Shown: positions 1-42,129 of the stretch, piece by piece | How positions within the stretch are numbered: position 1 is the first letter of the stretch | Layout of the letters: every line of letters starts with the position of its first letter | UHGV virus genome: UHGV-0179013 | Length of the DNA stretch: 42,129 nucleotides | Origin: a virus | Direction: 5' to 3' (one strand) | Translations under genes and position numbers: made by a program | The notes under the pieces: model-generated | The model's input: only the letters and a program-made list of their open reading frames with translations | Database searches by the model: none | What the model was told of the DNA's origin: nothing

Positions 1-333
1 TCAAAACTGCGCCAATGCCGCCTCAAGAGATATCGCAGCATCAGTGCTGTTGATAAAGTGCGTCACCCGCCTCATAACCTCAGCCTCTTCAGCTGCATCA
101 CCTTCGATCGCTTCGCCGTCATCCGTGATTAACGCTTTCCCCCTAAGCTTCGCAAACTGCGTCCGACCTCCGGACAGAATCAACAGCGCATCACCCTGCT
201 GTGGGCGCGTGACCGGGACGATGATCGCATAACCCGCCGACGTCTCGAGGATGCGACTGTCGGGAGTCATGCAGACACTGGCTGGCGTAACCCGCTGCTC
301 TATATAGTCGGTAGATGGTGAAGGAAAGCCCAT
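1..333 (-). CDS. Hypothetical small protein (110 aa from ATG at 333; stop codon at 1-3); N-terminus MGFPSPSTDYIEQRV resembles the N-terminal arm of UmuD'/MucA-family proteins but no Ser/Lys peptidase motif is visible
   Basis: ATG at 333 preceded by AGAGGG Shine-Dalgarno; divergent from DinI-like gene with a LexA-box-like palindrome in the shared 78-bp intergenic region. The longer ORF-track start at 582 overlaps the dinI-like gene and is not favoured. Confidence 0.4.
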   Translation of the reverse strand: MGFPSPSTDYIEQRVTPASVCMTPDSRILETSAGYAIIVPVTRPQQGDALLILSGGRTQFAKLRGKALITDDGEAIEGDAAEEAEVMRRVTHFINSTDAAISLEAALAQF

Positions 334-376
334 GTTTACGCCCTCTCTTGAATGCTGGATAAAAACACAGTATAAA

Positions 377-396
377 TACTGTATATGCATCCAGTA
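377..396. promoter_or_regulatory. Candidate LexA (SOS) box TACTGTATATGCATCCAGTA
   Basis: Matches the CTGT-N8-ACAG LexA consensus (TACTGTATATATATACAGTA) at 17 of 20 positions with the CTG...CAG core intact; lies 16 bp upstream of the DinI-like start and 44 bp upstream of the divergent ORF. Confidence 0.5.
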
Positions 397-411
397 AAGA
401 GGAAATGAGCA

Positions 412-654
412 ATGTTCGTGGAACTCGTTTATGACAAAAGGAATTTTGATGGGCTGCCTGGTGCAAAAGATATCATTCTGGGCGAATTGACTAAGAGGGT
501 TCACCGGGTCTTCCCTGATGCTGATGTCCGGGTGAAACCGATGATGACGTTGCCGGCGATCAATACTGACGCCAGCAAGCATGAGAAGGAGCAGATTAGC
601 CGTGTGGTTCAGGAAATGTTTGAAGAAGCAGAGTTCTGGTTAGTGAGTGAGTAA
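412..654 (+). CDS. DinI-family DNA-damage-inducible protein homologue (80 aa)
   Basis: Length and sequence pattern (GELTKRVHRVFPD ... KEQISRVVQEMFEEAEFWLVSE) parallel E. coli DinI (GELSRRIQYAFPD ... QRISEILQETWESADDWFVSE); AGAGGA RBS; LexA-like box upstream. Confidence 0.75.
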   Translation: MFVELVYDKRNFDGLPGAKDIILGELTKRVHRVFPDADVRVKPMMTLPAINTDASKHEKEQISRVVQEMFEEAEFWLVSE

Positions 655-668
655 AGTTTTCAATATCC

Positions 669-698
669 GCCACAGTTACGTTTTGATTACGCTGTGGC
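669..698. terminator. Inverted repeat GCCACAG-N16-CTGTGGC between convergent dinI-like and tail fibre assembly genes (possible bidirectional terminator)
   Basis: 7-bp perfect inverted repeat in the 68-bp gap between two convergent stop codons. Confidence 0.3.
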
Positions 699-722
699 AG
701 ATATTCATTTTCGTAAACGTTC

Positions 723-2314: not shown

Positions 2315-2365
2315 AGTTAATCCTCACTTAGTGTTAAGCGATAAAATCAGAGGGGGAAATATCAG

Positions 2366-4098: not shown

Positions 4099-4099
4099 A

Positions 4100-7597: not shown

Positions 7598-7612
7598 CAG
7601 GTCTCCTGAAAT

Positions 7613-7634
7613 AAAAAAAACCGCCACCTGGCGG
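7613..7634 (-). terminator. Intrinsic terminator between tape measure gene and baseplate genes
   Basis: Hairpin CCGCCAGGTGGCGG followed on the minus strand by a run of 8 T. Confidence 0.6.
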
Positions 7635-7665
7635 TTACCGTATATACAATGACAGTTGAAAATGA

Positions 7666-18302: not shown

Positions 18303-20432
18303 TTATTTCGGCAGGAGTTGCGATATTCGCTTACGTTTGACCGGCGCTGGTTCTTCAATAACCGCACCCGGCAGCTCGTAATTGATTTTTTCTTCCTGTC
18401 CAACTGGCGCTGGCAGGAACTTATCCGGATCGGCTTCGAGGTTGGCGGCCCGGACGTTGAGTTTTAACCCCATATGTTTGAGACCGCACAGCGCGGCATA
18501 GCTGTAAACGAGGCAGTCAAGCGCTTCGTTAGCTCGTCCTGGTATTGCTTCCCAGATACTGTACCGCTGCCCGGAAATGACTTTGTAAACCAGTCGCTCC
18601 GCCAGCAGCTGATTGAAGTACCCGAGATCGCGATCGTCAGGAAAATGCATATAACCCGCAGCGGCGGCGCCAGGTTTGGGTGGCTCAAGATGCAGGCGAC
18701 CGCGTATCACGTCTTTCGCTGAGTTAACCCCCAGAATGACAGGGCGGAAACTGGCTTTGCTTTTCGATGATGGTCGTTTGGTCGGCCAGACAGGATTGCG
18801 TTTGCCTCCCTGTGCAGACTCCCCCTTAATTGCCCAGACACGACGGCCAAGACGCTCTTTGGCGAATTCGTATACCTTCTGCGTATGGTGGCCGCCGGAG
18901 TCCATGCACGTTGCCATGATATTCAGGCCGCGCCCGTCACCACGTCGCCAGATCTGTTTCAGGTATGCATCCAGTCGCTTCCAGGGTTCTTCCGTCTCAA
19001 GGTCACCATAAATAACGTCATGCGCGACCGACCACGATTCTTCATCTCTCCCCCAGCCGGTGATCGTAATTTCGAAGCGATCGTCCTGGGTATCAACTCC
19101 AGCTGTTAACAATGCCACCCCGTCCGGAACGACGGCCGGAAATATTTCCCGGCGCGCCAGCAGAACATCAACAGGGAGCTGTTTCCCATGATTAGGTCGG
19201 TGCGGAAGCCCCATCTGGGTATTCCACCACGCCTGTTCCTTATCCGGATCGCCCTTCGCATCGATATATTTTTTCGCAATATCCGACGGCTTATCTTTTT
19301 GCCAGGGGCTGAAAAGCTTGGATGCCTGGTACCCCACGTGGTGGTTATCGACTGCCTCCTTTCCACAGGAGGGGCAGATTGCGCGATAGACCGCATGCCG
19401 TTCCGACTCTGACCATTGCCAGACCTTTTCAACGCTGCCCTCGTCTGCCGCCCGCCAGGCAAGGTCATAATCCATCAGCGGTGAGTGCCGCTCCCCGCAG
19501 CACTCAAATGGGCGCGTCTGATGCCATCGAATAGTTTGCAGAGCTCTGAGGCGCTGTCCTTCGGACCAGCCACTACCACAGCATTCGCAATAGAGCATCG
19601 CCGATTTAGTCAGGTGTTTATCTCCCTCTTTCGGCCACTGAACGTGTTTGAAAAAGTCGGGGAACTGGCGGTGGCCACAGTGCGGGCAAACCACAGATGC
19701 CCGGCGCTGATCGGAGTCGGCGTAGCTGTCAGCAATGCGGCTCTCATCCTCCACCGTCGGCGAACAGGCGCGTACAGACAGCCAGGTCAGGCCAAATGTC
19801 GCTGTACGCTCTTCGGCCAGCGCAATTGGATCGCCTTCGCGGGTTATCGGGTACTTGTCCACTTCATCCGCCAGCAGGACACGAATCGGACGACGCGCAA
19901 GGTTATCAGGGCTACCAGCACCCGCCAGCGCCAGAAATCCGCCAGTGAACGCCTTGTAAAGAATGGTTTCTTTCGAGCTTTTCTGTTTCGAATCACCGAT
20001 GATTTTACGCAGTACCGGCGTCACCCTTACCAGCGGGCTAATACGCTCTTTCGAAAACTGTTCAGCGGCTTCTTCTTTCGGCTGCAGCAGCAGTATCGGA
20101 CAAGGATCGAGGTGGGCAAAATAGCCAAAAAGGTTTTCCAGCAGTGCTGTCTTCATCAACTGGGTACAGCACATTACAGTGATGATATGAACCCCGGACT
20201 CCGTCGCGGCAAGCATCGGTCCGCGGGCAATTTCTACCGTCGATGTTTCCCAGTTTCCCGAAGTGCTCCCAGCCTCTTTTGCCAGCTTACGATAGTCATC
20301 TGCCCACTGCGGCACACTGATACGCGGCGGGGGTGTCCAGCCTTTGCGGACGCTTAATTCAAGACGCTCAATCTTCTGCCGGGTTAAACTCTGGCTCTCC
20401 GAGGACTGAGATGTGTTTGTGGACATGTTCAA
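18303..20432 (-). CDS. Terminase large subunit, lambda gpA family
   Basis: 709 aa; N-terminal WADDYRKL and C-terminal NEALDCLVYSYAALCGL parallel lambda A (EWADANYYL ... NEALDCFVYALAAL). Confidence 0.9.
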   Translation of the reverse strand: MNMSTNTSQSSESQSLTRQKIERLELSVRKGWTPPPRISVPQWADDYRKLAKEAGSTSGNWETSTVEIARGPMLAATESGVHIITVMCCTQLMKTALLENLFGYFAHLDPCPILLLQPKEEAAEQFSKERISPLVRVTPVLRKIIGDSKQKSSKETILYKAFTGGFLALAGAGSPDNLARRPIRVLLADEVDKYPITREGDPIALAEERTATFGLTWLSVRACSPTVEDESRIADSYADSDQRRASVVCPHCGHRQFPDFFKHVQWPKEGDKHLTKSAMLYCECCGSGWSEGQRLRALQTIRWHQTRPFECCGERHSPLMDYDLAWRAADEGSVEKVWQWSESERHAVYRAICPSCGKEAVDNHHVGYQASKLFSPWQKDKPSDIAKKYIDAKGDPDKEQAWWNTQMGLPHRPNHGKQLPVDVLLARREIFPAVVPDGVALLTAGVDTQDDRFEITITGWGRDEESWSVAHDVIYGDLETEEPWKRLDAYLKQIWRRGDGRGLNIMATCMDSGGHHTQKVYEFAKERLGRRVWAIKGESAQGGKRNPVWPTKRPSSKSKASFRPVILGVNSAKDVIRGRLHLEPPKPGAAAAGYMHFPDDRDLGYFNQLLAERLVYKVISGQRYSIWEAIPGRANEALDCLVYSYAALCGLKHMGLKLNVRAANLEADPDKFLPAPVGQEEKINYELPGAVIEEPAPVKRKRISQLLPK

Positions 20433-20937
20433 TCAGCACCTCTGTCATCCTGTCCGCCGGTACATCCAGATCAGCAGCCATTAGCGGCGCCACCCTGGAC
20501 GGCCAGTTAAGCCAGGCATCACGCTGTTGGCGAAAGGCGTTGAATAAAACCTCCTCGGCTGCTGTCAGCTCAATAAGCTGGCCGCTGTCTTTTTCATACT
20601 GCAGCTTTGCCTGCAGGGCCATGTAATTCTCGCGGATACGTCCCGCTTCCTCTCTCGAAAGATCTGCCCCTTCAGTGAGCATTATCTGGCGGACAGTTTT
20701 ATTGATTTCATCACCGTCATCATCGTTATCGCTAACGACGGGAGTTTTCTTTTTCTTCGCGTTCGAGGCGCGCGGGTCTTTGCCATCGCGGTTTTTCTTC
20801 AATGCCGCATCGCTGGCCTCTACGTCAATCAGGTCTCCGTCCATCACAATGAAGCGCCCGGCTTTAATCCACCGGCCAATTGTTTTGCGATCCACACCTG
20901 AATGTTGTGCGTACTGACTCTGGTTCATCGTGGTCAT
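20368..20937 (-). CDS. Terminase small subunit, lambda Nu1-like, N-terminal HTH
   Basis: 189 aa; N-terminal MNQSQYAQHSGVDRKTIGRWIKAG parallels Nu1 VNKKQLADIFGASIRTIQNWQEQG; upstream TGGGACA repeat array. Confidence 0.7.
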   Translation of the reverse strand: MTTMNQSQYAQHSGVDRKTIGRWIKAGRFIVMDGDLIDVEASDAALKKNRDGKDPRASNAKKKKTPVVSDNDDDGDEINKTVRQIMLTEGADLSREEAGRIRENYMALQAKLQYEKDSGQLIELTAAEEVLFNAFRQQRDAWLNWPSRVAPLMAADLDVPADRMTEVLIEHVHKHISVLGEPEFNPAED

Positions 20938-21084
20938 GGGACATCACCTGGGACATTTTCTGGGGTGGGACATTCGCCTGGGACATTTTCGCAATGTCCC
21001 ACCAGAATGTCCCACTGGAATAAACTGGAATAGCCAGAGCTGGCGAGGTGTCCGTAATGATCGCCAGAGGTGGGACATGGGACA
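20937..21084. repeat. cosB-like repeat array: six direct TGGGACA heptamers and two inverted TGTCCCA copies immediately upstream of the terminase small subunit gene
   Basis: TGGGACA at 20937, 20949, 20966, 20979, 21071, 21078; TGTCCCA at 20995 and 21008; the 14-mer CCTGGGACATTTTC occurs twice. Confidence 0.55.
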
Positions 21085-21227
21085 CAAATCTGAAAGTTGT
21101 AGCTAGGAAAACACCGCGGCGCGCAATGCCCGTACCTTACAAAAGTCTCAGGAAGGACCCATTTTTTTAATGGCTTCGACCATTCGCTCCGACTATGATT
21201 ATTCCTATTCAATACAAGGAGAATGTA

Positions 21228-26092: not shown

Positions 26093-26127
26093 CAATGAAT
26101 AACATGCTAATAAGCAAGGATAAGGCG

Positions 26128-30350: not shown

Positions 30351-31228
30351 GCGGTTATCCCTGCAGCAATTGCGCGATAGCTTTCCCAGCCAAACGCCAG
30401 ACGGTTTCGCCCACCATCGGTAACCCTGTCCACAATGCGCTCACCGATGGACTCCTTCAATTGCTCAAAGGTCAGGTTACTTATCAGGATTGTCGGAAGT
30501 ACGCTCTCATAGCGGGCGTTGATAATTTCCTGCAGGATGGTCATTTCCGTCGGACTACCGAATTGCACGCCCACCTCGTCGATAATCAGCAGATCCAGTG
30601 ATGCGAAACGCTCGATAACGTCTTCCTCGGTACTGTCAGCACCATGGCGCCACGTGTTTTTTACGGCACGGGTCAGGCGCATAACATCGGTGATTTGCAC
30701 ACTGGCCAGATACTCACGAACAATGCTCTTTGCCATCGATACCGCCAGATGGTTCTTTCCTGTCCCGCAGTTCCCGGTCATCACCAGCCCCGTTCCTGCG
30801 TTAAGACGCTCCGACCAGCTGTTGACGTAGCGCTGGCAGGCTGCAAGGTTTTTTGCGGCACCCTGATTAACCGCCTGATAATTACTAAACTCACAGCCCT
30901 CAAATCGGCGGGCGATCCCGACGTTGTCCAGCAGGTCAGATACCTGCAACGCACGCAGCCCGGAATCGACTGCTGCCAGCTCATCGCGCACGCACCCCGG
31001 GCACAGGGAATGTTTAACATTTTCGGTACCACGAAACGCTTTACCAGTGAGCGACATGCGCTCATAGTCGCCATGTTTTTCGCACACTACGGTGTGGACT
31101 TCGCCTGACTCCCAACTTCCCCACTGCCACGGTTTTTTATGTTCTACAGCGAACGCCAGTTCTTCGCGAAGTCCTTCGCGTTTCGCCAGCAGAGAATCCC
31201 TTTCTTCGCGTTGTTTGATGTTCAGCAT
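30347..31228 (-). CDS. DnaC-like helicase loader (AAA+ ATPase)
   Basis: ATG at 31228 with AAGGGGA RBS (ORF-track start 31246 is GTG); Walker A GNCGTGKNHLAVSMA, Walker B LLIIDEVG. Confidence 0.8.
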   Translation of the reverse strand: MLNIKQREERDSLLAKREGLREELAFAVEHKKPWQWGSWESGEVHTVVCEKHGDYERMSLTGKAFRGTENVKHSLCPGCVRDELAAVDSGLRALQVSDLLDNVGIARRFEGCEFSNYQAVNQGAAKNLAACQRYVNSWSERLNAGTGLVMTGNCGTGKNHLAVSMAKSIVREYLASVQITDVMRLTRAVKNTWRHGADSTEEDVIERFASLDLLIIDEVGVQFGSPTEMTILQEIINARYESVLPTILISNLTFEQLKESIGERIVDRVTDGGRNRLAFGWESYRAIAAGITA

Positions 31229-31242
31229 TGTGTTTCCCCTTG

Positions 31243-32229
31243 TCACCAGTTGCAGTCTGTTTGTCCGTAATCCTGTTCACTGAAGCCAGATACCGGAAGC
31301 GCACTGCGACGCCCACCTCCGGGAGCGGATGGAGTTTGCCAGGCTTCTTCGAAATGCCGATCAGGTCCAAAGAACGTTGCCGCCTGTTTGACGTATTCAG
31401 TACCAAGCTTGCCCGTCGCACGGATGTAGGCCGCGTAGCGCTGCACACCCGCCAGCAGCTCTGATGCCGTAGCGCCGTCGGCGATGCGAGCCTTCCAGTG
31501 TTTGTAGGCCGTTGCCTTCGGGTTGCCACCAGCGCGTTTTGGGTATGCCTGCCACGCTGTTTCAAATTCAGGTGAATAATCCTGCTTTGCAGAACGAGCT
31601 GGTGCAGGAGCGTCAGCGGATGCGCCATTAGTGTTTTTAATCTTTGTAGTAATCTCTGTTGTATTCTCTGTATACGTCTCACTTTTCAACGTAGGGTCAC
31701 TTACGTCAGGACGTGACAGGGGTTCCACTTCAACGGAGGGGGTATTCCGTTTCAACGTAATAGCTGTTCCAGTTTTGTTATCTTGTGGCGCTTCTTTGAT
31801 GGTGTTAGTGATGTGCGCGATAGCCCCAGGATTAACGCCAATAAACAGAACATTACTCATTACTGAACCTGCGGTGGTGTTAACCGTACGAAGCTCAAGC
31901 GTAATAAGTCCGGCATCACGCAGACGTTTAAGGGCATCGGTTGCTTCGCGTTTGGAGAAGCCAAACTGGTCAGCAAACGCCTGATAGTTACGCTGCAGCT
32001 TGTCGCCGTGGAAACGCTTGCGATAGCCCGTCAACTCCCCGGTAGTCTCATTGCGCACTTCCGCGGGGCGATACCAGTACACAATCTCGGCAAGCAGAGT
32101 TATCGCGGTCTGATCCGGGCGCCCGCTTGGCAGGGTTATATGCCGCCACCAGTTAGCGGGGGTGACGTTACCTGTAAAGCTTATCCGGCCGATAGCCGTT
32201 ACAGCGTCGGTTGGTGCGTGGGTTGTCAT
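31243..32229 (-). CDS. Phage replication initiation / replisome organiser protein (lambda O position)
   Basis: ATG at 32229 overlapping upstream stop (ATGA); N-terminal HTH-like region and C-terminal domain FETAWQAYPKR ... typical of phage replisome organisers. Confidence 0.6.
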   Translation of the reverse strand: MTTHAPTDAVTAIGRISFTGNVTPANWWRHITLPSGRPDQTAITLLAEIVYWYRPAEVRNETTGELTGYRKRFHGDKLQRNYQAFADQFGFSKREATDALKRLRDAGLITLELRTVNTTAGSVMSNVLFIGVNPGAIAHITNTIKEAPQDNKTGTAITLKRNTPSVEVEPLSRPDVSDPTLKSETYTENTTEITTKIKNTNGASADAPAPARSAKQDYSPEFETAWQAYPKRAGGNPKATAYKHWKARIADGATASELLAGVQRYAAYIRATGKLGTEYVKQAATFFGPDRHFEEAWQTPSAPGGGRRSALPVSGFSEQDYGQTDCNW

Positions 32230-32534
32230 TGCCCCCCCTCCCACTGCCATGACGGCATCAAAACAAAGCCCATAGGATCGCTGACCTTTGCACACCTAAC
32301 ATCACCTGGCTGCACAATCTCCATCCCGATGTATCCGGCACAAAGTAAGAGCTCAAGAGCAATGAAAAGCTCATCAACGGAGCAACAGCAGAATTCTGCG
32401 AATTCCGATACACTGAGATAACGAAAACCTGAACAATCGCAGCTACCGGACATCCAGATGCGGCACATAATCAGGCGATGAAGGGCGCTTTCAAAAGGAT
32501 GTTTATTGATAAAATCAGGGATAGACTTACTCAT
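32226..32534 (-). CDS. Hypothetical Cys-rich small protein
   Basis: 102 aa, stop/start overlapped on both sides; multiple Cys (CDCSGF, CCCS); function unknown. Confidence 0.35.
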   Translation of the reverse strand: MSKSIPDFINKHPFESALHRLIMCRIWMSGSCDCSGFRYLSVSEFAEFCCCSVDELFIALELLLCAGYIGMEIVQPGDVRCAKVSDPMGFVLMPSWQWEGGQ

Positions 32535-33379
32535 GCGGCACCTGCCAACTCTTTGTCGTGGGTAAATTCACCTTTCCAGCGCTTCTTCATCGGAAGATGC
32601 CCCTTGAGATAGTGTCGGTAAATCCATACCGCGCCTTTGCGCAGAAGGATCGGTTTGAATGTGTCACGCATCTCGCCGTCGTCCTGTTCTACTTGACCAG
32701 AACGCTCACTGAGGTAGAGATCGCGTGCATAGTGATGAACCCGCCAGCGCGGATATTTAGCCTTTGGCTGGTCGTCGTAGAGCCAGTTATGTTCGAACAA
32801 AAACGCATTAACCTGCTGGACGTTGACGCCGTTCAGCTGCTTACAGAACTGGCAAGGAGACATACCCGGCTGAAAGAGGTTTTCCAGGTGCTCGATGTAC
32901 TTTGCCTGTCGCTCGACGTATCCAAGCGCACGCCGGGCAGCTTCACGTTCGTCAGCCCATGCACGCGCAGCAGCCACCTCATCTGAGAAATCAGGCAGAT
33001 CTGAGTTAACCGCCACCAGCTTACCTGTGCGAAAGTCGAGGAAGGTCTGATTCACCTGCAAGCGGAATACTGGTGAGATCCACCCGGCATACTCAATGGC
33101 CAGCAGTTCGTGAGCGAAAGTGCCGCCATTCCTGCCTTCGTCTGAAACTATGCAAATCTGCACAGTTTCTTTTTCCAGCTCAGCGATTAGCGATTTAGCA
33201 GTTTGAGTGCGCAACCACTGGGCAGGGGCTTTGTTAGCACCAAGCCCACTCGCCTTGTGCAAAGCATTCAGGTTAAAACGCCCCTCAGCATCGGTAGTGA
33301 TTTCCACACCTGCAATAACAGGTAGGCTTTCAGCACCATTACTTGAATTATTCAGATGTTTATTGATATTATTTTTCAC
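32531..33379 (-). CDS. KilA-N domain protein with C-terminal ANT-like antirepressor domain
   Basis: 282 aa; N-terminal VIAGVEITTDAEGRFNLNALHKASG pattern of KilA-N domains; C-terminal region typical of phage antirepressor C-domains. Confidence 0.6.
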   Translation of the reverse strand: MKNNINKHLNNSSNGAESLPVIAGVEITTDAEGRFNLNALHKASGLGANKAPAQWLRTQTAKSLIAELEKETVQICIVSDEGRNGGTFAHELLAIEYAGWISPVFRLQVNQTFLDFRTGKLVAVNSDLPDFSDEVAAARAWADEREAARRALGYVERQAKYIEHLENLFQPGMSPCQFCKQLNGVNVQQVNAFLFEHNWLYDDQPKAKYPRWRVHHYARDLYLSERSGQVEQDDGEMRDTFKPILLRKGAVWIYRHYLKGHLPMKKRWKGEFTHDKELAGAA

Positions 33380-33690
33380 GAATTTACCTCGCCAGGTAGA
33401 TTTATGCAGGTATGAACAGTAGTGAAGTTAGAAAAGGCCGGTGAGGGAACCCATTCTCTTTCCGGCCTTTTTCTTGCCGTCTCTCCGATCTGCTGTTGTC
33501 GTCTGACCTTTAGCCCACTGGCGCGCGTAGTGAAGACAATCGTCATACGCCCTGCCTTTACGGGTTGCCTGCGACATCCGGCGGTAGTGGTCAACGCCGA
33601 TCTGCCCCCCCCCTGACACACCTGCTCAGAAAATCCCTCGGACGCCAGCTGCGCGGCAATATTCTTGCGAATAAAATCTACCGGATTCAT
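33376..33690 (-). CDS. Small early protein in cII position, reading frame ambiguous across a G9 homopolymer
   Basis: ATG at 33690 behind GGAGG RBS; the N-terminal 29 codons run into G9 (33605-33613), where a second frame (ORF 33428-33619) opens; as-is frame ends at an ATGA overlap with the KilA-N gene. Confidence 0.4.
   Translation of the reverse strand: MNPVDFIRKNIAAQLASEGFSEQVCQGGGRSALTTTAGCRRQPVKAGRMTIVFTTRASGLKVRRQQQIGETARKRPEREWVPSPAFSNFTTVHTCINLPGEVNS
33434..33475 (+). terminator. Plus-strand intrinsic terminator antisense to the early operon (oop-like antisense RNA 3' end)
   Basis: Roughly 15-bp interrupted stem (AAGGCCGG ... CCGGCCTT with inner GAGGGAA/TTCTCTT pairing) followed by TTTTTCTT on the plus strand; no plus-strand gene ends here. 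Confidence 0.45.
33605..33613. repeat. Homopolymer tract (C9 on plus strand, G9 in the coding strand) at a reading-frame junction
   Basis: Nine consecutive C at 33605-33613; a +1 nt change would fuse the ATG-initiated N-terminus to the alternative downstream frame. Confidence 0.9.
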
Positions 33691-33694
33691 ACTG

Positions 33695-34174
33695 TTATCC
33701 CCTCCAGAACATCAAATGAGACAGGATATGGAAAACCCGATCGCTAAACTTGCGCTTAACTACTGGTACAAAGTGCTTATTGCTGGCGGATTCTTTGTCT
33801 TCTTGGTGAATGGAACCGGGATCCTCACTGCATACCCGACAGCAGGTACTGGACTCATTTCCCTTGGTTGCGCTTTGTGGGGAGTCGGCGAATGGATTAA
33901 CCACCCCTACCAGGAGGTATTGATCCCCGGAGTTTTTGGCCGACCATCCGGGAAGCTGTCCGGTTACCCCAGAAAAGTCAGCTTGGCCGGTATTGCCTTC
34001 GATGTTATCGGTGGCGCCCTTATCGTCTTTGGAATTGTTAAATTGTTCCAATGACCACCCAATTAGACTTACACCCCCAGTAGCTGGATCGATAACTACA
34101 GACCCAGGAAACTTACGCTCAAGATCAACCAGCATCATCCTTAGCGCCTCAAGGTCAGAATATCGCTGTGGCAT
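33695..34174 (-). CDS. Hypothetical early protein immediately downstream of cro (159 aa)
   Basis: ATG at 34174 behind GAGGTG RBS, 2 nt after the Cro-like stop; low-complexity Gly/Ser/Asp-rich middle; fully overlapped by a membrane-like antisense ORF. Confidence 0.4.
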   Translation of the reverse strand: MPQRYSDLEALRMMLVDLERKFPGSVVIDPATGGVSLIGWSLEQFNNSKDDKGATDNIEGNTGQADFSGVTGQLPGWSAKNSGDQYLLVGVVNPFADSPQSATKGNESSTCCRVCSEDPGSIHQEDKESASNKHFVPVVKRKFSDRVFHILSHLMFWRG

Positions 34175-34175
34175 G

Positions 34176-34415
34176 TCACACCTCTGCGCTTCTATTCCTC
34201 AATGGAGAAAAAATGAGATTTTCTTTTTTCAAACTGAGGTTGGGGGAAACCTTAGATACAGCAACCTCAATACGTGAGGCCATTGCTACAGATGGACGAC
34301 GGAACCCTAAAGCCATTTGATTTAAGTAAGCGACGCTCGTGCCCGATAGTTGAGCCAACTGCTTCCACTCATCTGTAGTCATAACGTCCCTGATTGAGAG
34401 CAATCCTCTATACAT
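34176..34415 (-). CDS. Cro-like HTH transcriptional regulator
   Basis: 79 aa from ATG at 34415 (GGAGG RBS), or 68 aa from ATG at 34382; HTH segment WKQLAQLSGTSVAYLNQMALGFRRPSVAMASRIEV; divergent from repressor gene across the operator region. Confidence 0.65.
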   Translation of the reverse strand: MYRGLLSIRDVMTTDEWKQLAQLSGTSVAYLNQMALGFRRPSVAMASRIEVAVSKVSPNLSLKKENLIFSPLRNRSAEV

Positions 34416-34440
34416 GTTACCTCCCGCTCTGTATTCATTA

Positions 34441-34507
34441 TTAGCAACGTGCTAACATTAGCACACCACCAAACAATGTAGCAATACGCTACAAAGCACA
34501 TTGCTAA
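34441..34507. promoter_or_regulatory. Immunity-region operator cluster with TTAGCA/TGCTAA half-sites
   Basis: TTAGCAacgTGCTAA (34441-34455), TTAGCA (34459), TGTAGCAatacGCTACA (34478-34494), TGCTAA (34502) in the 105-bp divergent cro/repressor intergenic region. Confidence 0.5.
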
Positions 34508-34520
34508 CAAAGGGGCCAAC

Positions 34521-34976
34521 ATGGAAATCAAAGATATTCGATTAAATAACCTACAATCAGTAATTCAACGCAGCGGTTTAACGCAGACTGAATTGGCTTT
34601 GAAATGTGATATATCTCCTTCACTTATCAGCCAGATAATGACTAAACGCAGAAATATGGGGACCGCTTTTGCCCGGAAACTGGAAGGTAGGCTAAATCTT
34701 TCAGAAGGGTGGTTTGACATGCCTCACTCCCTGCTAGACTCGCCGTGGCATCTGGCAAAAATGGGAGAAAAAGACAATCTAGTGGCTGGTCAAGAACAAC
34801 CATTAAACAAAAGAGAGAGCCGTCTTGTAGAGCTATTCAGACAGATGCCTGAAAGCGAAAAAGACAGAATAATAAATGATTTAGCACAAAAAAAACGAGA
34901 TTTTGACAAACTTCTTGATGAACTAATGGCCGTGAAAGCTGCAAAGATGCCAATTGATAAAAATGAAAATGAATAA
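34521..34976 (+). CDS. CI-like prophage repressor, XRE-type HTH, without S24 peptidase (non-autocleavable) domain
   Basis: 151 aa; N-terminal HTH LTQTELALKCDISPSLISQIM; C-terminal part is charged/coiled-coil-like with no Ser-Lys peptidase motif; AAGGGG RBS. Confidence 0.65.
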   Translation: MEIKDIRLNNLQSVIQRSGLTQTELALKCDISPSLISQIMTKRRNMGTAFARKLEGRLNLSEGWFDMPHSLLDSPWHLAKMGEKDNLVAGQEQPLNKRESRLVELFRQMPESEKDRIINDLAQKKRDFDKLLDELMAVKAAKMPIDKNENE

Positions 34977-35001
34977 TAAAAACATTGTGTTATAAAAAAA
35001 C

Positions 35002-35023
35002 AGCAAAATATTAGCATTTTGCT
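35002..35023. terminator. Hairpin AGCAAAAT-ATTAGC-ATTTTGCT after repressor gene (possible terminator; loop carries an operator half-site)
   Basis: Perfect 8-bp inverted repeat preceded by an A7 run; loop sequence ATTAGC matches the TTAGCA operator half-site. Confidence 0.3.
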
Positions 35024-35024
35024 A

Positions 35025-35085
35025 TTGTCAAAATTAACGCGCAGCGCTACATTCACCTCATCCAGTAAATTAGTGAGGTGAATGT
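35025..35085 (+). promoter_or_regulatory. Candidate promoter (TTGTCA-17 bp-TACATT) overlapped by a perfect 13-bp inverted repeat TACATTCACCTCA-N11-TGAGGTGAATGTA that covers the -10, RBS and start region of the downstream gene
   Basis: Inverted repeat arms at 35048-35060 and 35074-35086; right arm contains the GAGGTG Shine-Dalgarno. Confidence 0.45.
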
Positions 35086-35086
35086 A

Positions 35087-35533
35087 ATGTTCAGTACAAA
35101 TCACGACCCAAGATCAATTAATTCTCTTTTGCTTTGTGCTCAGGTAGCGTTATTGAATGGTTCTGTTTCAAATATCGATATTATCAATGTTTTAGACGTA
35201 GCGCAGGACCTAATTTCATTAACCGTCACCAGCTCGGCTGATAATGAAATAAGCGCCACTAATTCAAACAAAGAACAACCCACACCACGATACGCTCCTT
35301 ACACTGGCAGTATTAACATTGGTCAACGCATACGACTGGCACGCAAATACTCTGACCTAAAACAGAGCCATATAGCTAACGCTTTAGGGGTAACCATTCA
35401 AGCGGTGTCCTTATGGGAAAATGACTCAACAGTTCCCACCTGCGACAAAATTATCCCACTGGCTAACGTACTTAAATGCGATCCGATGTGGTTATTATCA
35501 GGTGCTCCTTTAGAAGTCACAGAGGAATCCTGA
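35087..35533 (+). CDS. Hypothetical protein with C-terminal XRE-type HTH domain (148 aa)
   Basis: ATG at 35087 behind GAGGTG (ORF-track start 35078 is GTG); HTH IGQRIRLARKYSDLKQSHIANALGVTIQAVSLWEN; AT-rich locus downstream of repressor (rex-like position). Confidence 0.5.
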   Translation: MFSTNHDPRSINSLLLCAQVALLNGSVSNIDIINVLDVAQDLISLTVTSSADNEISATNSNKEQPTPRYAPYTGSINIGQRIRLARKYSDLKQSHIANALGVTIQAVSLWENDSTVPTCDKIIPLANVLKCDPMWLLSGAPLEVTEES

Positions 35534-35955
35534 TGATGAAAACCCATGTTGAAATGTTGGAAAGCATCGCAGCTGATATTGTGGAAAACACCTCGTTACT
35601 TGAGGTTATTTACCGCATCAATGAATTGCCACCAGAAGCCGATAATGCAATTGCTTGCCTTATTCGCTCAATGCAGAAAACGCTGGATGGTGTTAATGAG
35701 TATGTTTCGATGTTACCCACTACTACTCGAGGTGATAAAGCAAAAGATAGAATCGATATTGATGATATCGCTGATGATGTATTTAATGTGACTATTACAG
35801 TGAACCAGCTTAACGAACTGGCACATATATACAATGAGTCATATTTCACCGATAAAGATAGTGACGATCCAAAATGCCTGATGTCAGCAACAATTTATGA
35901 CTACGCAAGAAAAGTTAAGGATGAACTGAAAACCATCGAAACTAAATTAGGTTAA
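35533..35955 (+). CDS. Hypothetical acidic protein (140 aa), coupled to upstream HTH gene
   Basis: Start overlaps upstream stop (ATGATGA context); AT-rich; no recognisable motif. Confidence 0.4.
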   Translation: MMKTHVEMLESIAADIVENTSLLEVIYRINELPPEADNAIACLIRSMQKTLDGVNEYVSMLPTTTRGDKAKDRIDIDDIADDVFNVTITVNQLNELAHIYNESYFTDKDSDDPKCLMSATIYDYARKVKDELKTIETKLG

Positions 35956-36010
35956 TAAATAAAATTTTTAATAACGCCTTAATCGGTGGGACATCACTCA
36001 CCCTGAGGAA

Positions 36011-36307
36011 ATGCAAATGAATATTATCGTCAGAAATGAAGTCGTGAATAACAAAGCCCATCCAGCCAATCAGGATGACGACATTCTTTACATAAACAAA
36101 GCCCACAAAACAGCAGAGTGTGCCAATAAATATGCACATGAACTCCGTGCTGAATTTACCCAGTTGCTTATGCCAGCAATCACACGCACTGATGTGAAGG
36201 TAGCGGGAAGATTCACCTCATTACTTAATGAGCTTTGCTTCATGACAAAAATGACGATGGAGAACACCTCAAAGGGGGGGGGCAATAATGACGTTTCTGA
36301 AAGATAA
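36011..36307 (+). CDS. Hypothetical early protein (98 aa)
   Basis: ATG behind GAGGA RBS; AT-rich. Confidence 0.4.
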   Translation: MQMNIIVRNEVVNNKAHPANQDDDILYINKAHKTAECANKYAHELRAEFTQLLMPAITRTDVKVAGRFTSLLNELCFMTKMTMENTSKGGGNNDVSER

Positions 36308-36400
36308 AGCAGCACACAAGACAGCAAAACTTTTCGCCTCTTATGGAAATAGTTATCTGCATATTGCAAACCTTTTTCTGCGCAAGGCTTACGGGCGGTA

Positions 36401-36763
36401 GTGACAATGAAAAACAACATCATTGAAATTTATCGCCGCCGCATTGCTATTGCGACATTAAACCGAATGAAGCGCAAGACAGGAGGTTATTGTCTCTCCG
36501 TAAATATGCCCGATGACAATATTCAGGTTATCGAGATTAACGAAGAATCAATGCTGAAACTTTTGCTGCGCTTCGAAAAACAGGCTCGGACTGAATTCAA
36601 CACAGAAGCGGAAACATTTCTTCGCCAGACGTATATGAAAAGCGTCGATATCAATGGACACACCGAATATCTGACCGAAACCGGAAAGATGATTGTTGAC
36701 GAGATTTTTGCGGAATTAATTAAACACGCGAAAGAGAAATACGTATGTGGAGGAATTAACTGA
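36401..36763 (+). CDS. Hypothetical early protein (120 aa)
   Basis: ORF in early-left operon; stop overlaps next ATG (TGATG). Confidence 0.4.
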   Translation: MTMKNNIIEIYRRRIAIATLNRMKRKTGGYCLSVNMPDDNIQVIEINEESMLKLLLRFEKQARTEFNTEAETFLRQTYMKSVDINGHTEYLTETGKMIVDEIFAELIKHAKEKYVCGGIN

Positions 36764-37013
36764 TGGCCTCACAACAAACAATTATTCACGGAATGCAGAT
36801 CCCCCCCCAGTCCTCAACGTGGATCTGCATGTGCTTCCGGATTTCACCGGACGCGTGGTTCTTTACATCGAAAAAGGGCGTGTGACATGCGACCGCCGGC
36901 TGCTCGACGACGAACATATTTGCGCACTGGACACTTTTATCGAAATGGCCCGCGAAGCCGGGTTACGTATACAGGAGCTAACTGGTGGCACTGACAGCAA
37001 TTCGAATACCTGA
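36763..37013 (+). CDS. Hypothetical early protein whose ATG-initiated frame and long ORF are separated by a C8 homopolymer (frameshift or sequencing error or phase-variable)
   Basis: ATG at 36763 coupled to upstream stop; after C8 (36801-36808) this frame stops after 39 codons, whereas a +1 C would join it to the 88-codon ORF 36747-37013, which itself has only a GTG start. Confidence 0.3.
36801..36808. repeat. Homopolymer tract C8 at a reading-frame junction
   Basis: Eight consecutive C at 36801-36808. Confidence 0.9.
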
Positions 37014-37199
37014 ACGCGTACACCTGCAGGCGATGCAGGTCCTGCTGCGATACCGACGGAAGCGAGTATATGCACGACGTATGCGACGCACCGGATTTCT
37101 CAGTCTGAAGGTTAATCCGCGCTGGCGGATGCTATCGAAAGACAATGGCCGCAATTGGGAAGTAATGAGTCATAAAACGTATAACGGAGAATTAAAACG

Positions 37200-37706
37200 A
37201 TGAGTACCAACAAAAACGACAACGTAAAGCAGCTAGTTGCCCGACTGAAAGAAATGCAGGAGCAGTCCGGTACGCACATCCCCGCGTGGATGCTCGATGA
37301 AAATCGTTACGGCAAAGGTGCTCTGACAACTGAAGAACAGCATGAATGGGCTGAAACCGTTTGTCACTCCATGCGCGGAACTGTCGCCCTGCTTTACCTG
37401 ATTGAATGCGAAAAGCGCTGGGGACTTCGTGACGGTGAGTATCAGTTTAAAACCGGTGAGTTTGTTTTTGGCTTAACGCGGCAGCTTATCGAGAACCTGC
37501 TTATTGAACACGTAGAAGGCGCACTGATCGAGAAAAAACCGCAGGAGCGATATCTGGCTGTATTCCAGTTCTACTCCGCCAACGATCAGCGCCTGAAAGA
37601 AGACGGTCATTCGTGGTTCAGCGGTTTTCTCGACGAGATGTTTATGGATCTTGCTGTTCGGTTACGTGTCGGCGAAGCAATACCCGTTCAACACATTTTG
37701 CACTGA
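37200..37706 (+). CDS. Hypothetical early protein (168 aa)
   Basis: Long ORF in early-left operon; no recognisable motif. Confidence 0.45.
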   Translation: MSTNKNDNVKQLVARLKEMQEQSGTHIPAWMLDENRYGKGALTTEEQHEWAETVCHSMRGTVALLYLIECEKRWGLRDGEYQFKTGEFVFGLTRQLIENLLIEHVEGALIEKKPQERYLAVFQFYSANDQRLKEDGHSWFSGFLDEMFMDLAVRLRVGEAIPVQHILH

Positions 37707-37711
37707 GGTAA

Positions 37712-37996
37712 ATGATGATGAAAAACGAACTTATCACTGTGTGGTACATCGTCACATTCATGGTGACTGAAAATGCCGAGCGCCGCGAATATTCAATCTT
37801 TGTCGGCAGTAGTAGCGAAATGGAGGCGGTGGTTTCTGCGACTGCTGGGCTCTGTAAGGGACATGCTGAATTCAGCGAACCAGCATTCAAATCTATCCGC
37901 ATCGCGACCTATGGCGAGGCCGGATCGCTTGATGCAGAACTCGATGCAATTGCCGAACGGGAACAGAAAGAACTGGAGGAAGAAGACAATGAGTAA
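37712..37996 (+). CDS. Hypothetical early protein (94 aa) with acidic C-terminus
   Basis: ORF ending in an overlap with the Bro-N gene start. Confidence 0.4.
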   Translation: MMMKNELITVWYIVTFMVTENAERREYSIFVGSSSEMEAVVSATAGLCKGHAEFSEPAFKSIRIATYGEAGSLDAELDAIAEREQKELEEEDNE

Positions 37997-38747
37997 TCAA
38001 CTGATGAAATTTAACTCGTCGGATCTCGGCATTTCTCTGAGCGGGATGCTTTACCAGGGGAAACCAGTATTTGATGCCGTTGAGCTGGCAAAATCCCTGG
38101 GTTACGCAAATCCGGCTGACGCGCTAAAAACTCACTGCAAGTCATTGATTAAACTTAATTATAGCGAATCGCGAGAATTGGGTTTTAACGACAAAATTCG
38201 TGGCATGCAACTTGCGTCTGAATCTGATGCTTACCGGCTCATTCTCCGTAGCCAGCTTGCTTCCGCTGAACGTGTACAAGACTGGGTATGCGAAGATGTT
38301 CTGCCATCTATCCGCGAAACTGGCAGCTATAGATACCAACGCCCTAAATCTCAGGCGGAGATCATTGCCGAAATGGCTCTGCTGAATGTTGAGCAGGAGC
38401 GTCGCCTTAACCACGTTGAGGACAAGGTCGTTGAGGTTACCGAGCTAGTAGATCATATCGCTCGTGGTGCAACGCCTCCTGGTTGGGCTGGATACTCAGA
38501 ATTGAAAGCACTGTGCGGACTTTCAGATGCAAAGTGTCGCCAGTTAGTATCCGCTTATGACATCGACCATAAGCCTATCCCATTTATTGCGCCTGGAGGA
38601 ACCAAATCCACCATGACCATTGTGCGTGAGCAGCCATTTATGACGGCATTCACCAAAATGATGTTTGAAGCTGAACCTCGAGGCACCCGGTGGTATCACC
38701 CTAAGATGGGGCTGTTCCAGGTGATTGGATGGGATGGTCAACAGTGA
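37989..38747 (+). CDS. Bro-N domain protein (phage antirepressor-like)
   Basis: ATG at 37989 (ORF-track start 37773 is upstream in the same frame); N-terminus MKFNSSDLGISLSGMLYQGKPVFDAVELAKSLGYANPADALKTHCKS fits the Bro-N pattern. Confidence 0.55.
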   Translation: MSNQLMKFNSSDLGISLSGMLYQGKPVFDAVELAKSLGYANPADALKTHCKSLIKLNYSESRELGFNDKIRGMQLASESDAYRLILRSQLASAERVQDWVCEDVLPSIRETGSYRYQRPKSQAEIIAEMALLNVEQERRLNHVEDKVVEVTELVDHIARGATPPGWAGYSELKALCGLSDAKCRQLVSAYDIDHKPIPFIAPGGTKSTMTIVREQPFMTAFTKMMFEAEPRGTRWYHPKMGLFQVIGWDGQQ

Positions 38748-39169
38748 ACAATAATGAAATTTGGGTACCGGTTGGCTCTGTTGAGCTGGCCCACCAGCAA
38801 GCGCTGATATGGGTGTCTGATGCCTACCTGTTCCACTTAGTCAGCATGCATCGTCGCCCGGTGTACCGCCATCAGTACGGGGATATTTCACTAGACCAAC
38901 CAGCCATTAAGAGCTTTATCGATTCGTATTTGGAAGATAAGGGATGGGATATGGAAAAACGCCGTGCCCATTACATCAACATTCTGGACCTCATTAAATA
39001 TATGCACCGCAGTAATTCTGACTTCATCGACTGGGGGACTGTACCAACACTAACCCCAAGGGGCATCCGATGGATGAATGCTTGCTTCTCGCGGCTGGGC
39101 GAAATGGTTAACAGCTATGGTGGATGGGAAAACTACACAAAAGAAACTGCCGGAGATTCAATTTCATGA
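38729..39169 (+). CDS. Hypothetical early protein (146 aa)
   Basis: ORF in operon context. Confidence 0.4.
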   Translation: MGWSTVNNNEIWVPVGSVELAHQQALIWVSDAYLFHLVSMHRRPVYRHQYGDISLDQPAIKSFIDSYLEDKGWDMEKRRAHYINILDLIKYMHRSNSDFIDWGTVPTLTPRGIRWMNACFSRLGEMVNSYGGWENYTKETAGDSIS

Positions 39170-39390
39170 AAATCCAATACCAGGACTATGGCGCCGTAGC
39201 GAACATCGTGATCACCAGCACTGTGTTTGAGTTCCGTAAACATAACCGCGTGGTAGACGCCACGCTGCTCTGCACACCAGGAATAGTTGCAAACCGTAGT
39301 GGAATGTTCTTCATGAAGACGGTTTTGTCCGGAAAATCTCGCGATATGTTACTAGCCTACAAGACAATTCAACGAGAGGCGACACGATGA
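39166..39390 (+). CDS. Hypothetical early protein (about 75 aa)
   Basis: ATG at 39166 overlapping upstream stop. Confidence 0.35.
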   Translation: MKIQYQDYGAVANIVITSTVFEFRKHNRVVDATLLCTPGIVANRSGMFFMKTVLSGKSRDMLLAYKTIQREATR

Positions 39391-39599
39391 GCAAAGGCCA
39401 GCATTCAGCTTACCCATGCCCGCGCATCGATACTCCCCGTGGCATGACCTATCGCCAGCACCTCGTTGTGCAGATAGCGCCAGTAATGCTCACGAATTTT
39501 TTTAGCAATGATGCATGGCAGGATTACGACGACCTAGCCAGAACTCTGGTGATGGCTGTAGATGCCATCATCGAAGCTGAGCGGGAGACGGCGAAATGA
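39387..39599 (+). CDS. Hypothetical early protein (70 aa)
   Basis: Start/stop overlaps with neighbours. Confidence 0.35.
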   Translation: MSKGQHSAYPCPRIDTPRGMTYRQHLVVQIAPVMLTNFFSNDAWQDYDDLARTLVMAVDAIIEAERETAK

Positions 39600-40057
39600 G
39601 CAAAATCACTAACCCTGTCGTGCTTATCTATAAGCGCGAAAACAGTGATACCTACGCTGTCGCGATCACCAATGGCAGCCAGGACTATCACGACGCCGTT
39701 CTGATGGCGACGATGGAACCGGATATGGCCGGTGATGATGTAGATACCTGGAGCAAAACCGGTTACTACATGGCGGCGGAGATTCAGCGCTTACGCCAGC
39801 AGTTGATCGCCCCTTTAAGTATTGGGGAGTTAATTCAGCGTCTTGAATCGCAGACTGGCGACCACTGGGAGAGAGTGGTTAGCGATGTCACTTCTGGTAA
39901 ACCGTTGACCATCACCCTGCCAGATATTACGTCAAAAGCGTTCTGGAGCGATACCGGGAAAAGCGAAGTATTCCATCCGGAAACCTATAAGCGCTGGGTG
40001 AAAGAAGCTATAGAGCGAGCTTGTGTCATTGCCGGGATCGGCGTGGAGGTGAAGTGA
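39596..40057 (+). CDS. Hypothetical early protein (153 aa)
   Basis: Start/stop overlaps with neighbours. Confidence 0.4.
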   Translation: MSKITNPVVLIYKRENSDTYAVAITNGSQDYHDAVLMATMEPDMAGDDVDTWSKTGYYMAAEIQRLRQQLIAPLSIGELIQRLESQTGDHWERVVSDVTSGKPLTITLPDITSKAFWSDTGKSEVFHPETYKRWVKEAIERACVIAGIGVEVK

Positions 40058-40368
40058 TGACCACCACTACACCAATAATGACCGCCTCAGGAAGTGTGCA
40101 GTTTCGCCACTACATGGTGACTGTTCACGCTATTGAACGCTATATCGAACGCATTGGTGGCGATGTAGGAAATCTGATCCTCGATCTCAAAAACGCCTGG
40201 GTATTTGATGTCAGCAAGAAAGGTATTCCCCGCTCTTTGTGCGCCTCAGTCGCACGCTGCGAACGTGAAGGTGGATACGGGCTCAGGCATGACAAGGCTA
40301 TTTTTCTGATAAAACCCAAGGCGCGCCAGCATGTCATTGTGACGACGTTATCTGCAGAGGTGAAGTAA
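40057..40368 (+). CDS. Hypothetical early protein (about 103 aa)
   Basis: ATG at 40057 overlapping upstream stop (GTGATGA). Confidence 0.4.
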   Translation: MTTTTPIMTASGSVQFRHYMVTVHAIERYIERIGGDVGNLILDLKNAWVFDVSKKGIPRSLCASVARCEREGGYGLRHDKAIFLIKPKARQHVIVTTLSAEVK

Positions 40369-40514
40369 TGCACAAAGCATTTGAAATATGGGTGCGCCAA
40401 CGGTACGGGAGCCGTTACGACCTTACGCGAGATTGCGACGGTTTTTACTGTAGGGAAGTGGTAAAGCGGATGTTTGATGTGTGGCGCCACTGCCGTGGCC
40501 TTGACTTGGTGTGA
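40368..40514 (+). CDS. Unannotated small protein (48 aa) MHKAFEIWVRQRYGSRYDLTRDCDGFYCREVVKRMFDVWRHCRGLDLV
   Basis: Hand-translated; ATG overlaps upstream stop (TAATG); below the ORF-track length cutoff. Confidence 0.35.
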   Translation: MHKAFEIWVRQRYGSRYDLTRDCDGFYCREVVKRMFDVWRHCRGLDLV

Positions 40515-40523
40515 GGCGGGTAT

Positions 40524-40760
40524 ATGAGCAATGTTATTCAGTTAGCTCCTAACGATTGGGTTTGTGAAAGCGTTCTTATCGCGGTTACCGGGCTCAAGCC
40601 CGGTACCATCCTCCGGGCCAGAAAAGAGTGCTGGATGGTTGGGAGGGAGTATATCCACGTATCACCTGACGGGAATCCAAAACCTTCCAGTGAGTGCATG
40701 TATAACAGAAAGGCTGTAGATGCCTGGGTAGCTTCGATGAAAAACAAACAGCCAGGGTGA
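40524..40760 (+). CDS. Excisionase-like protein
   Basis: 78 aa directly upstream of integrase on the same strand; GAGGCGGG RBS; sequence resembles the putative-excisionase family found next to lambdoid prophage integrases. Confidence 0.5.
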   Translation: MSNVIQLAPNDWVCESVLIAVTGLKPGTILRARKECWMVGREYIHVSPDGNPKPSSECMYNRKAVDAWVASMKNKQPG

Positions 40761-40815
40761 TTTGATGCCATGAAAAAGGTAAGCTCATATCGCTCTTGGG
40801 CGTCTGGAGGTATCA

Positions 40816-42129
40816 ATGGATAAAATCACATATCCAACAGGCGTCGAAAACCACGGTGGCAGTCTGCGCATCTGGTTTAATTTTAAAGGTAAGCGCGTCA
40901 GGGAAAACCTCGGTGTCCCTGACACCGCTAAGAACAGGAAGATCGCCGGGGAACTGCGGGTGTCGGTATGCTTTGCCATCCGCACGGGAAGCTTTGATTA
41001 TGCTGAACGGTTTCCAGATTCACCTAACCTTAAAATTTTTGGGTTGGGCAAGAAAGAAATCACAGTGAAAGAACTCGAAGAGAAGTGGCTGGATCTGAAA
41101 AAGATGGAAATCAGCGCGAACGCGCACAAACGGTACGAGTCGGTCGTGGCAGTTGTTGTACCGCTGATCGGGGCTACCCGACTAGTGACAGCGATTGAGA
41201 AAGAAGAGTTGCTGTACATCAGGAAAGAGCTTTTGATGGGTTATCAGTGCGCGGCAAAGGGCAGGATCCCTGTTAAGGGCCGGAGCGCGGTCACCGTCAA
41301 TTACTACATGACGACTATCGCCGGAATGTTCCAGTTCGCCGCCGATAATGGGTACATAAAGGCAAATCCCTTTGATGGAATAAAGCCATTAAAAAGGGCC
41401 AGGGTGGAGCCAGATCCGCTCAGCCGTGATGAATTCATCCGTCTGATAGATGCGTGCCGGCATCAGCAGACGAAAAACATGTGGTCACTGGCGGTGTACA
41501 CAGGTGTTCGTCACGGAGAACTGGTTTCCCTGGCATGGGAAGATATAGACCTTGAAGCGGGTACAATAACAATTCGCCGTAATTATACAAAACTGGGCGA
41601 GTTCACACTACCGAAAACGGACGCCAGTACGGATAGAGTGATACACCTCATTCAGCCAGCCATCGATGCGTTAAGGAATCAGATGGAAATGACTAGACTC
41701 GGGCAGCAGTATCACATCAACGTGCAATTGCGTGAATATGGTCGAACAACGCAGCACAGCTGTACATTTGTCTTTAACCCTAAGATAGTCCGTCGAAGTA
41801 AGGATGTGGGGGTTATCTACAAGGTTGATTCGTTTGGTGACTCGTGGGACGCAGGGTTAAAAAAGGCGGGGATCAGGCATCGAAAAGCTTACCAGTCGCG
41901 CCACACTTACGCGTGCTGGTCACTGGCCGCTGGCGCCAATCCAAGCTTTATAGCCAGTCAGATGGGGCACGCTAGTGCGCAAATGGTTTTCAATGTGTAC
42001 GGCGCATGGATGGCAGACAATAACGCAGAGCAGATCGCAATGCTGAATCAGAAGCTGGGTGATTTTGCCCCATTGATGCCCCATAGACCACAAACTAGCA
42101 GTAGAGGATTATTAAAATCAGTAAGTTAA
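40816..42129 (+). CDS. int: Tyrosine recombinase / phage integrase (lambda-type, with N-terminal arm-binding domain)
   Basis: 437 aa; catalytic-region signatures TGVRHGEL, SRHTYACWSLAAGANPSFIASQMGHAS, NVYGAWM (R, H-x-x-R, Y); stop codon is the last three bases of the window. Confidence 0.9.
   Translation: MDKITYPTGVENHGGSLRIWFNFKGKRVRENLGVPDTAKNRKIAGELRVSVCFAIRTGSFDYAERFPDSPNLKIFGLGKKEITVKELEEKWLDLKKMEISANAHKRYESVVAVVVPLIGATRLVTAIEKEELLYIRKELLMGYQCAAKGRIPVKGRSAVTVNYYMTTIAGMFQFAADNGYIKANPFDGIKPLKRARVEPDPLSRDEFIRLIDACRHQQTKNMWSLAVYTGVRHGELVSLAWEDIDLEAGTITIRRNYTKLGEFTLPKTDASTDRVIHLIQPAIDALRNQMEMTRLGQQYHINVQLREYGRTTQHSCTFVFNPKIVRRSKDVGVIYKVDSFGDSWDAGLKKAGIRHRKAYQSRHTYACWSLAAGANPSFIASQMGHASAQMVFNVYGAWMADNNAEQIAMLNQKLGDFAPLMPHRPQTSSRGLLKSVS

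Follow-up and report, generated by a model that had tools for sequence, protein, structure and literature searches.

The stretch of viral DNA analysed here (UHGV-0179013, 42,129 nucleotides, referred to as the window) is very probably an integrated temperate phage of the phiP27 type, about 43.35 kb from core to core, that lies in a Citrobacter chromosome, has been cut out of it at its outermost gene ends, and carries an integrase that targets the host gene yecE. The phiP27-type yecE integration module is already known and the window is a further instance of it. The biological import is small: one more phiP27-type integrase at yecE, which is already catalogued as a hot spot for prophages in enterobacteria. 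The features needed to follow the argument are listed below, in window coordinates.

1..333, − strand: leftmost gene, outward-facing, 110 aa; S24-peptidase-like in relatives; its stop codon (TCA on the strand shown) is bases 1-3
40524..40760, + strand: excisionase gene, 78 aa; DUF1233 (PF06806), 111.6 bits; 55 bp upstream of the integrase
40816..42129, + strand: integrase gene, 437 aa, a single ORF; the window closes on its TAA, 42127-42129
42064..42084, + strand: two tandem candidate arm-type sites, TTTGCCCCAT and GATGCCCCAT, at about integrase codons 417-424
42148-42158 (window-equivalent, beyond the right edge): right core copy TTAACTGCGTG, starting 19 bp past the TAA and followed by yecE from codon 33 onward

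The integrase gene and the two ends of the prophage

The gene at the right edge reads outwards and stops on the last base of the window, as the initial annotation had stated. A GGAGG lies seven bases upstream of its ATG. Judged against Pfam's curated cut-offs, the product has an Arm-DNA-bind_2 domain (PF12167; residues 7-70, 82.6 bits against a cut-off of 22) and a Phage_integrase domain (PF00589; residues 203-395, 61.2 bits against 27.1). Its counterpart in Escherichia coli strain G3/10 is a 1,314-bp gene annotated as integrase, with 99.9% nucleotide identity, and it is clearly orthologous to the integrase L01 of phiP27, which has the same length (437 aa) and is identical at 350 of 436 positions (80%) without a gap. 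More distant matches are XerA, Tn1549 Int and lambda Int, with which the motifs YTGVRHGEL, SRHT and GHAS align; R233, R362, H385 and Y395 (in YTGVR233HGEL, SR362HT, GH385AS and NVY395G) all align to XerA. No catalytic lysine was located. A tyrosine, Tyr359, stands where the HxxR motif usually has its first histidine (AYQSRHT). Because the phiP27 integrase has the same change, this appears to be a family trait rather than a defect, the integrase activity itself being putative. By its domains, the gene is classed as a tyrosine recombinase of the lambda-style, N-terminal arm-binding type, and as an ordinary phiP27-type enzyme. The counterparts of the DUF1233 ORF just upstream are annotated as excisionase in G3/10 and phiP27, and its product would direct excision. 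This integrase/excisionase end matches phiP27-like phages at about 78-80% identity. For window 1-25000, the structural and packaging half, no close relative was found among 50,697 deposited phage genomes, the best of which covers at most 4% of the query, a result that does not affect the attachment-site question.

The DNA beyond both edges can be read from contigs that are identical to one or other end of the window. The right flank is supplied by two contigs, L054 and L055, which match window 29200-42129 at 100% identity (12,930 bp); in it the order is the TAA, the 18-bp spacer CCCCTAACGCCCGTCATG, the 11-bp core TTAACTGCGTG, and then GAGGGCAACACC within yecE. The remainder of yecE, yecN, cmoA and cmoB follow, all host genes, and this flank holds no further phage genes beyond the TAA. 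A third contig (L035), 100% identical to window 1-8314, supplies the left flank. Leftward of position 1 it carries a hemerythrin-domain gene (136 aa), a DinI gene (79 aa) and the P' arm; beyond the DinI gene the sequence runs through ACGCGGTAATTTTTAAAATCAC to a second copy of TTAACTGCGTG, this core ending 1,188 bp from position 1. On its host side lie the first 29 codons of yecE and then yecD, aspS and nudB. The prophage reconstructed in this way is 43,357 bp with both core copies included, of which the window lacks 1,199 bp, with two genes, at its left end and 29 bp at its right end. The two flanks come from separate contigs; in the related G3/10 prophage both junctions can be read from one chromosome, and the same 11-mer stands at each.

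Part of what the initial annotation had expected of these ends has been borne out. The left end had been thought not to be reached, and there is indeed phage DNA and a core copy beyond position 1; a direct repeat had been suggested as the mark of the junctions, and the 11-mer is that repeat. The attachment site had been placed just outside the right edge, which holds for the core and the host genes that follow it, whereas the P arm is probably inside the window (see below). Further phage genes in the flanks had been named as evidence against a junction: the right flank has none and the left flank has the hemerythrin-domain and DinI genes before its junction is reached.

The identical contigs were retrieved with window proteins that had no exact copy in any locus fetched earlier; look-ups with the integrase, a 153-aa protein and a 151-aa HTH protein returned related prophages only, at 88-99% identity. 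Among known hosts, Citrobacter portucalensis comes nearest to the host flanks (about 91.5-91.9% identity), from which we infer a different species of Citrobacter as host. No species-representative genome has an exact match to the final 42 bases of the window; the representative genome of the source species is without this prophage.

Both edges of the window are cuts made at gene boundaries by a provirus-delimiting procedure, and the coincidence of stop codon and edge is an artefact of extraction. Not only do both edges fall on stop codons, but proviruses in IMG/VR are cut at the same bases: the three that include the integrase's final 42 bases all start precisely on the same TAA, and of the 17 that include window bases 1-49, 16 have their last base at the exact counterpart of position 1. 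Provirus pipelines use integrases as boundary anchors. Being trimmed at these same bases, the IMG/VR contigs with the same ends provide no flanks, with the exception of one (L017). A 193-aa ORF at 1..582(−), which overlaps the DinI-like gene on the other strand, was rejected as the leftmost gene; it is an over-extension, since on the identical contigs the called gene is confined to 1..333 (110 aa). For annotation, a stop codon on the edge of such a record signals provirus trimming at a gene boundary and not the end of a genome, and the window holds neither att core: the 11-mer is absent from it, even with one mismatch allowed.

The yecE target and the attachment core

The integration target is the coding sequence of yecE (a DUF72 gene, between yecD and yecN), which the insertion splits at codons 29-32. 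When the left and right host halves are joined they give the uninterrupted yecE of E. coli K-12 (...GCCCGCCACT TTAACTGCGTG GAGGGC...), and the intact, empty site is also present in 10 species-representative genomes of Salmonella, Citrobacter, Kluyvera, Scandinavium, Silvania and Leclercia. In the Escherichia- and Citrobacter-like chromosomes returned by three look-ups (with the integrase and with two early-region proteins, which are widely shared), the integrase is followed by the genes DUF72-MAPEG-cmoA-cmoB in 26 of 26 places. G3/10 likewise has yecE, yecN, cmoA and cmoB downstream of its integrase. A related integrase is found by megablast in 407 of 5,426 complete E. coli genomes, and it abuts yecE in all 20 of the matches listed. 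The gene is a catalogued integration site of Stx phages (PMC8065619), and its locus has been called a hot spot, with a 21-bp att/attB defined there that overlaps the same yecE positions (PMC8112680).

The contiguous phage form of the site was observed in the metagenomic viral contig L017, in the order predicted by joining the two phage halves: an integrase 93% identical to that of the window, 18 bp, TTAACTGCGTG, ACGCGGTAATTTT, the DinI gene, the hemerythrin gene and the S24-like gene. With attP contiguous in this contig, the 1.2 kb that the window lacks on its left is seen to be phage-borne. The source of L017 could be a tandem lysogen instead of free phage DNA; the junction is attP either way. 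The core region of attP reads CGTCATG-TTAACTG-CGTGACG, a 7-bp centre between imperfect inverted repeats, and that of attB reads CGCCACT-TTAACTG-CGTGGAG, at yecE codons 27-33.

Natural junctions set bounds on the region of strand exchange. The spacer between integrase stop and core is 18 bp in all 29 junctions (28 between prophage and host and the phage-form junction of L017), and TTAACTG is invariant across the same set. On its right, host-specific synonymous variants start at core position 8 (TGC>TGT) and position 11 (GTG>GTC/GTT); on its left, the two bases immediately adjoining it differ between attP and attB. The constant spacer, the invariant heptamer and the variation on either side together argue that strand exchange is confined to TTAACTG. 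A 7-bp overlap region is canonical for this class of enzyme. In the mechanism proposed here, exchange would take place within this overlap, flanked by imperfect inverted core-type sites, and would leave the 11-bp direct repeat TTAACTGCGTG at both ends of the prophage; the exact cleavage positions, like the assignment of the proteins to arm-type and core-type sites, are predictions from sequence. The spacer mimics yecE codons 26-28 (Ala-Arg-His) and supplies no new start codon, a mimicry that would fit a role as a core-type site. Comparison of the 28 natural prophage-host junctions is a cheap, experiment-free way to bound the strand-exchange region for this integrase family.

Three other readings of the right edge need to be weighed against integration at yecE. 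Phage integrases commonly target the 3' ends of tRNA or tmRNA genes, and the initial annotation had suggested that such a gene lies just past the window. A related left-arm module (DinI, hemerythrin and S24-like genes) does adjoin ssrA in a prophage of E. coli MS 115-1, although that prophage matches the window only over 1-639 and says nothing on the window's integrase. ARAGORN finds no tRNA or tmRNA gene in the window or in the loci L054, L035, L017 and L001, and 28 of 28 right-hand prophage-host junctions run into yecE; the chance that the site is a tRNA or tmRNA end is next to negligible, and that part of the earlier suggestion has to be given up. With a protein-coding target, a tRNA scan could never have located the site. 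It is extremely unlikely, too, that the window is the record of a complete phage genome whose right edge is a physical or conventional end, either a cos end or a record opened at att. The window's length of 42.1 kb is phage-like and the GenBank layout of phiP27 also puts the integrase at one extremity, but the phiP27 record has both 11-bp att copies and the 18-bp spacer where the window has no core. To the left of position 1, the contigs identical to the window's ends have 1,188 bp more of phage sequence; a cluster of cos-like repeats and the terminase genes sit in mid-window (about 18.3-21.1 kb); and both edges fall on stop codons, as in the IMG/VR proviruses.

A crossover that overlaps the last codons of the integrase, with the att core partly inside the window, might be read from the NCBI annotation of G3/10 and from other gene calls, in which a DUF72 ORF starts 22 bp inside the integrase, and from the presence of a GTTAAC hexamer at the integrase stop (AAGTTAAC) as well as at the core (ATGTTAAC). 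The annotated overlap, however, comes from a gene caller that extends the truncated yecE upstream to a non-canonical ATT start in a frame different from that of the integrase. The DUF72 ORFs annotated over the integrase end are of two types, one with this ATT start and the other starting at the GTG of codon 32, and are gene-caller extensions of the truncated yecE 3' fragment. Identity between the left and right junctions is limited to TTAACTGCGTG, at +19 to +29. The 18-bp spacer differs by phage lineage (CCCCTAACGCCCGTCATG, CCCAACATACCCGACATG and GTTACTATACCCGACATG, with TCTTTAATACCCGTCATG in phiP27) independently of the host, and is therefore phage DNA. An overlapping crossover is thus as improbable as a complete genome record, and exchange at the core beyond the spacer, within yecE, is preferred to all three.

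Candidate arm-type sites and other features of the prophage

Two copies of TGCCCCA within the tandem candidate sites (window 42066-42083) start 82 and 71 bp before the core. They belong to a set of six same-strand copies of TG(C/T)CCCA at −82, −71, +128, +139, +159 and +170 from the core start. The reconstructed 43.3-kb phage has 12 copies on that strand, and half of them fall in this interval of −82 to +170, where 0.16 copies would be expected with both strands counted; the Poisson probability of about 2e-8 is only indicative, because the motif was chosen after the sequence had been seen. Over the whole window, TGCCCCA is no more frequent than chance would give (7 copies against 6.3 expected), and only the clustering on the att side stands out. 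The same arrangement is kept in phiP27, G3/10 and the attP of L017, though for the P-arm copies, which are in coding sequence, such conservation is confounded with that of the protein. The repeats are plausible arm-type sites for the Arm-DNA-bind_2 domain, which would bind them in both arms. The complete attP would then consist of two arm-type sites in the 3' end of the integrase gene, its TAA, the 18-bp spacer, the core with its inverted repeats, and a P' arm with four arm-type sites. As the first two are inside the integrase coding end, attP would straddle the window edge: its P arm is probably within the window, and only the core and the P' arm would be outside. The 3' end of the integrase gene may be dual-coded as the P arm of attP.

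A similar motif forms a second cluster near the middle of the window. Eight copies of (A/G)TGTCCCA in both orientations lie at 20932-21085, including a 23-nt inverted repeat (20965-20987 / 20993-21015), so that the octamer (A/G)TG(T/C)CCCA occurs in two clusters, of six copies in the attP arms and eight here. This second cluster is intergenic, just upstream of the ORF 20368..20937(−), presumed to be the small-terminase gene, which precedes a large-terminase gene of the lambda GpA type, 18303..20432(−). The repeats are probably cosB-like terminase-binding sites. The resemblance between the two motifs might suggest that a single DNA-binding protein of the phage (the excisionase or the arm domain of the integrase) recognises both att and the packaging region and so couples excision to packaging, but this is very unlikely. 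phiP27, with a different terminase, has the att-arm cluster and no terminase-side cluster.

The region downstream of the integrase in the attP form was also considered for a lambda-style sib retroregulatory element, which was rejected: it contains no terminator-like site or sib-like hairpin, and its predicted RNA fold is unremarkable, being no better than that of shuffled sequence (z = −0.47).

Several further features of the prophage may be recorded. Two co-oriented genes at 26095-28205(+), on the strand opposite to their neighbours, encode an NA37-like nucleoid-associated protein (372 aa) and a RelA/SpoT-domain protein (330 aa), the latter with a weak PADLOC match to the candidate defence family PDC-S33. 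The pair looks like cargo, possibly an alarmone-synthetase toxin or a defence module. LexA-box-like sequences of the form CTG-N10-CAG occur at window 379-394 and at L017 4530-4545 (CTGTATATGCATCCAG and CTGTATAAATAAACAG). The one in the window lies between the divergent S24-like gene (1..333, −) and a DinI-like gene (412..654, +); that in L017 lies upstream of the other DinI gene, which is in the P' arm region, within the left arm that is missing from the window. The prophage thus carries two DinI paralogues, which may be under SOS regulation. The end module beside ssrA (tmRNA) in E. coli MS 115-1 (L002, NZ_CP146665; 3440-5654), in a different prophage, contains the DinI, hemerythrin-domain, 110-aa S24-like and DinI-like genes and matches window 1-639 at 97.7% identity. 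Phages that integrate at different sites exchange this cargo module.

Comparison with known integration systems

The closest known system is the integrase and att module of phiP27, an Stx2e phage (AJ298298; Recktenwald & Schmidt 2002, as cited in PMC8065619). Its annotated attL (1-11) and attR (42565-42575) are both TTAACTGCGTG, identical to the core of the window's prophage. The excisionase and then the integrase read toward att, 18 bp separate the integrase stop from the core, a homologous P' arm carries the same TG(C/T)CCCA repeats, and the target is likewise yecE. In contrast, the integrase DNA is about 78% identical and the spacer differs at several positions, and the remainder of the phage is mosaic. 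The terminase of the window is of the lambda GpA type and its portal is lambda-type; the window is without stx genes or tRNAs, has different left-arm cargo (hemerythrin and DinI), and comes from Citrobacter rather than E. coli.

The Stx1a, Stx2a and Stx2d prophages at yecE in E. coli O145:H28 and others use the same hot spot, and the yecE positions covered by their 21-bp att (for the prophage-borne copy, reverse complement CCGCCACTTTAACTGCATGAC) overlap those of the core described here (PMC8112680). Those prophages share 21 bp with attB, whereas the window's phage shares 11 bp, and only 7 bp + 3 bp in the hosts with the TGT variant.

The likeness to lambda is one of organisation. In both, N-terminal arm-binding is followed by core-binding and catalytic domains, xis and int are adjacent and transcribed toward att, a 7-bp overlap core, a predicted one in the window's phage, is flanked by imperfect inverted repeats, and direct repeats are clustered in both arms. 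The similarity in Int sequence is marginal (E = 0.007) and the arm-domain family differs (PF12167). The window's integrase also differs from that of lambda in having no detected sib-like structure downstream. Whereas lambda integrates in the intergenic gal-bio region, the target of the window's phage is inside a gene; and with no more than 18 bp between its integrase stop and the core, its P arm would be accommodated in coding sequence.
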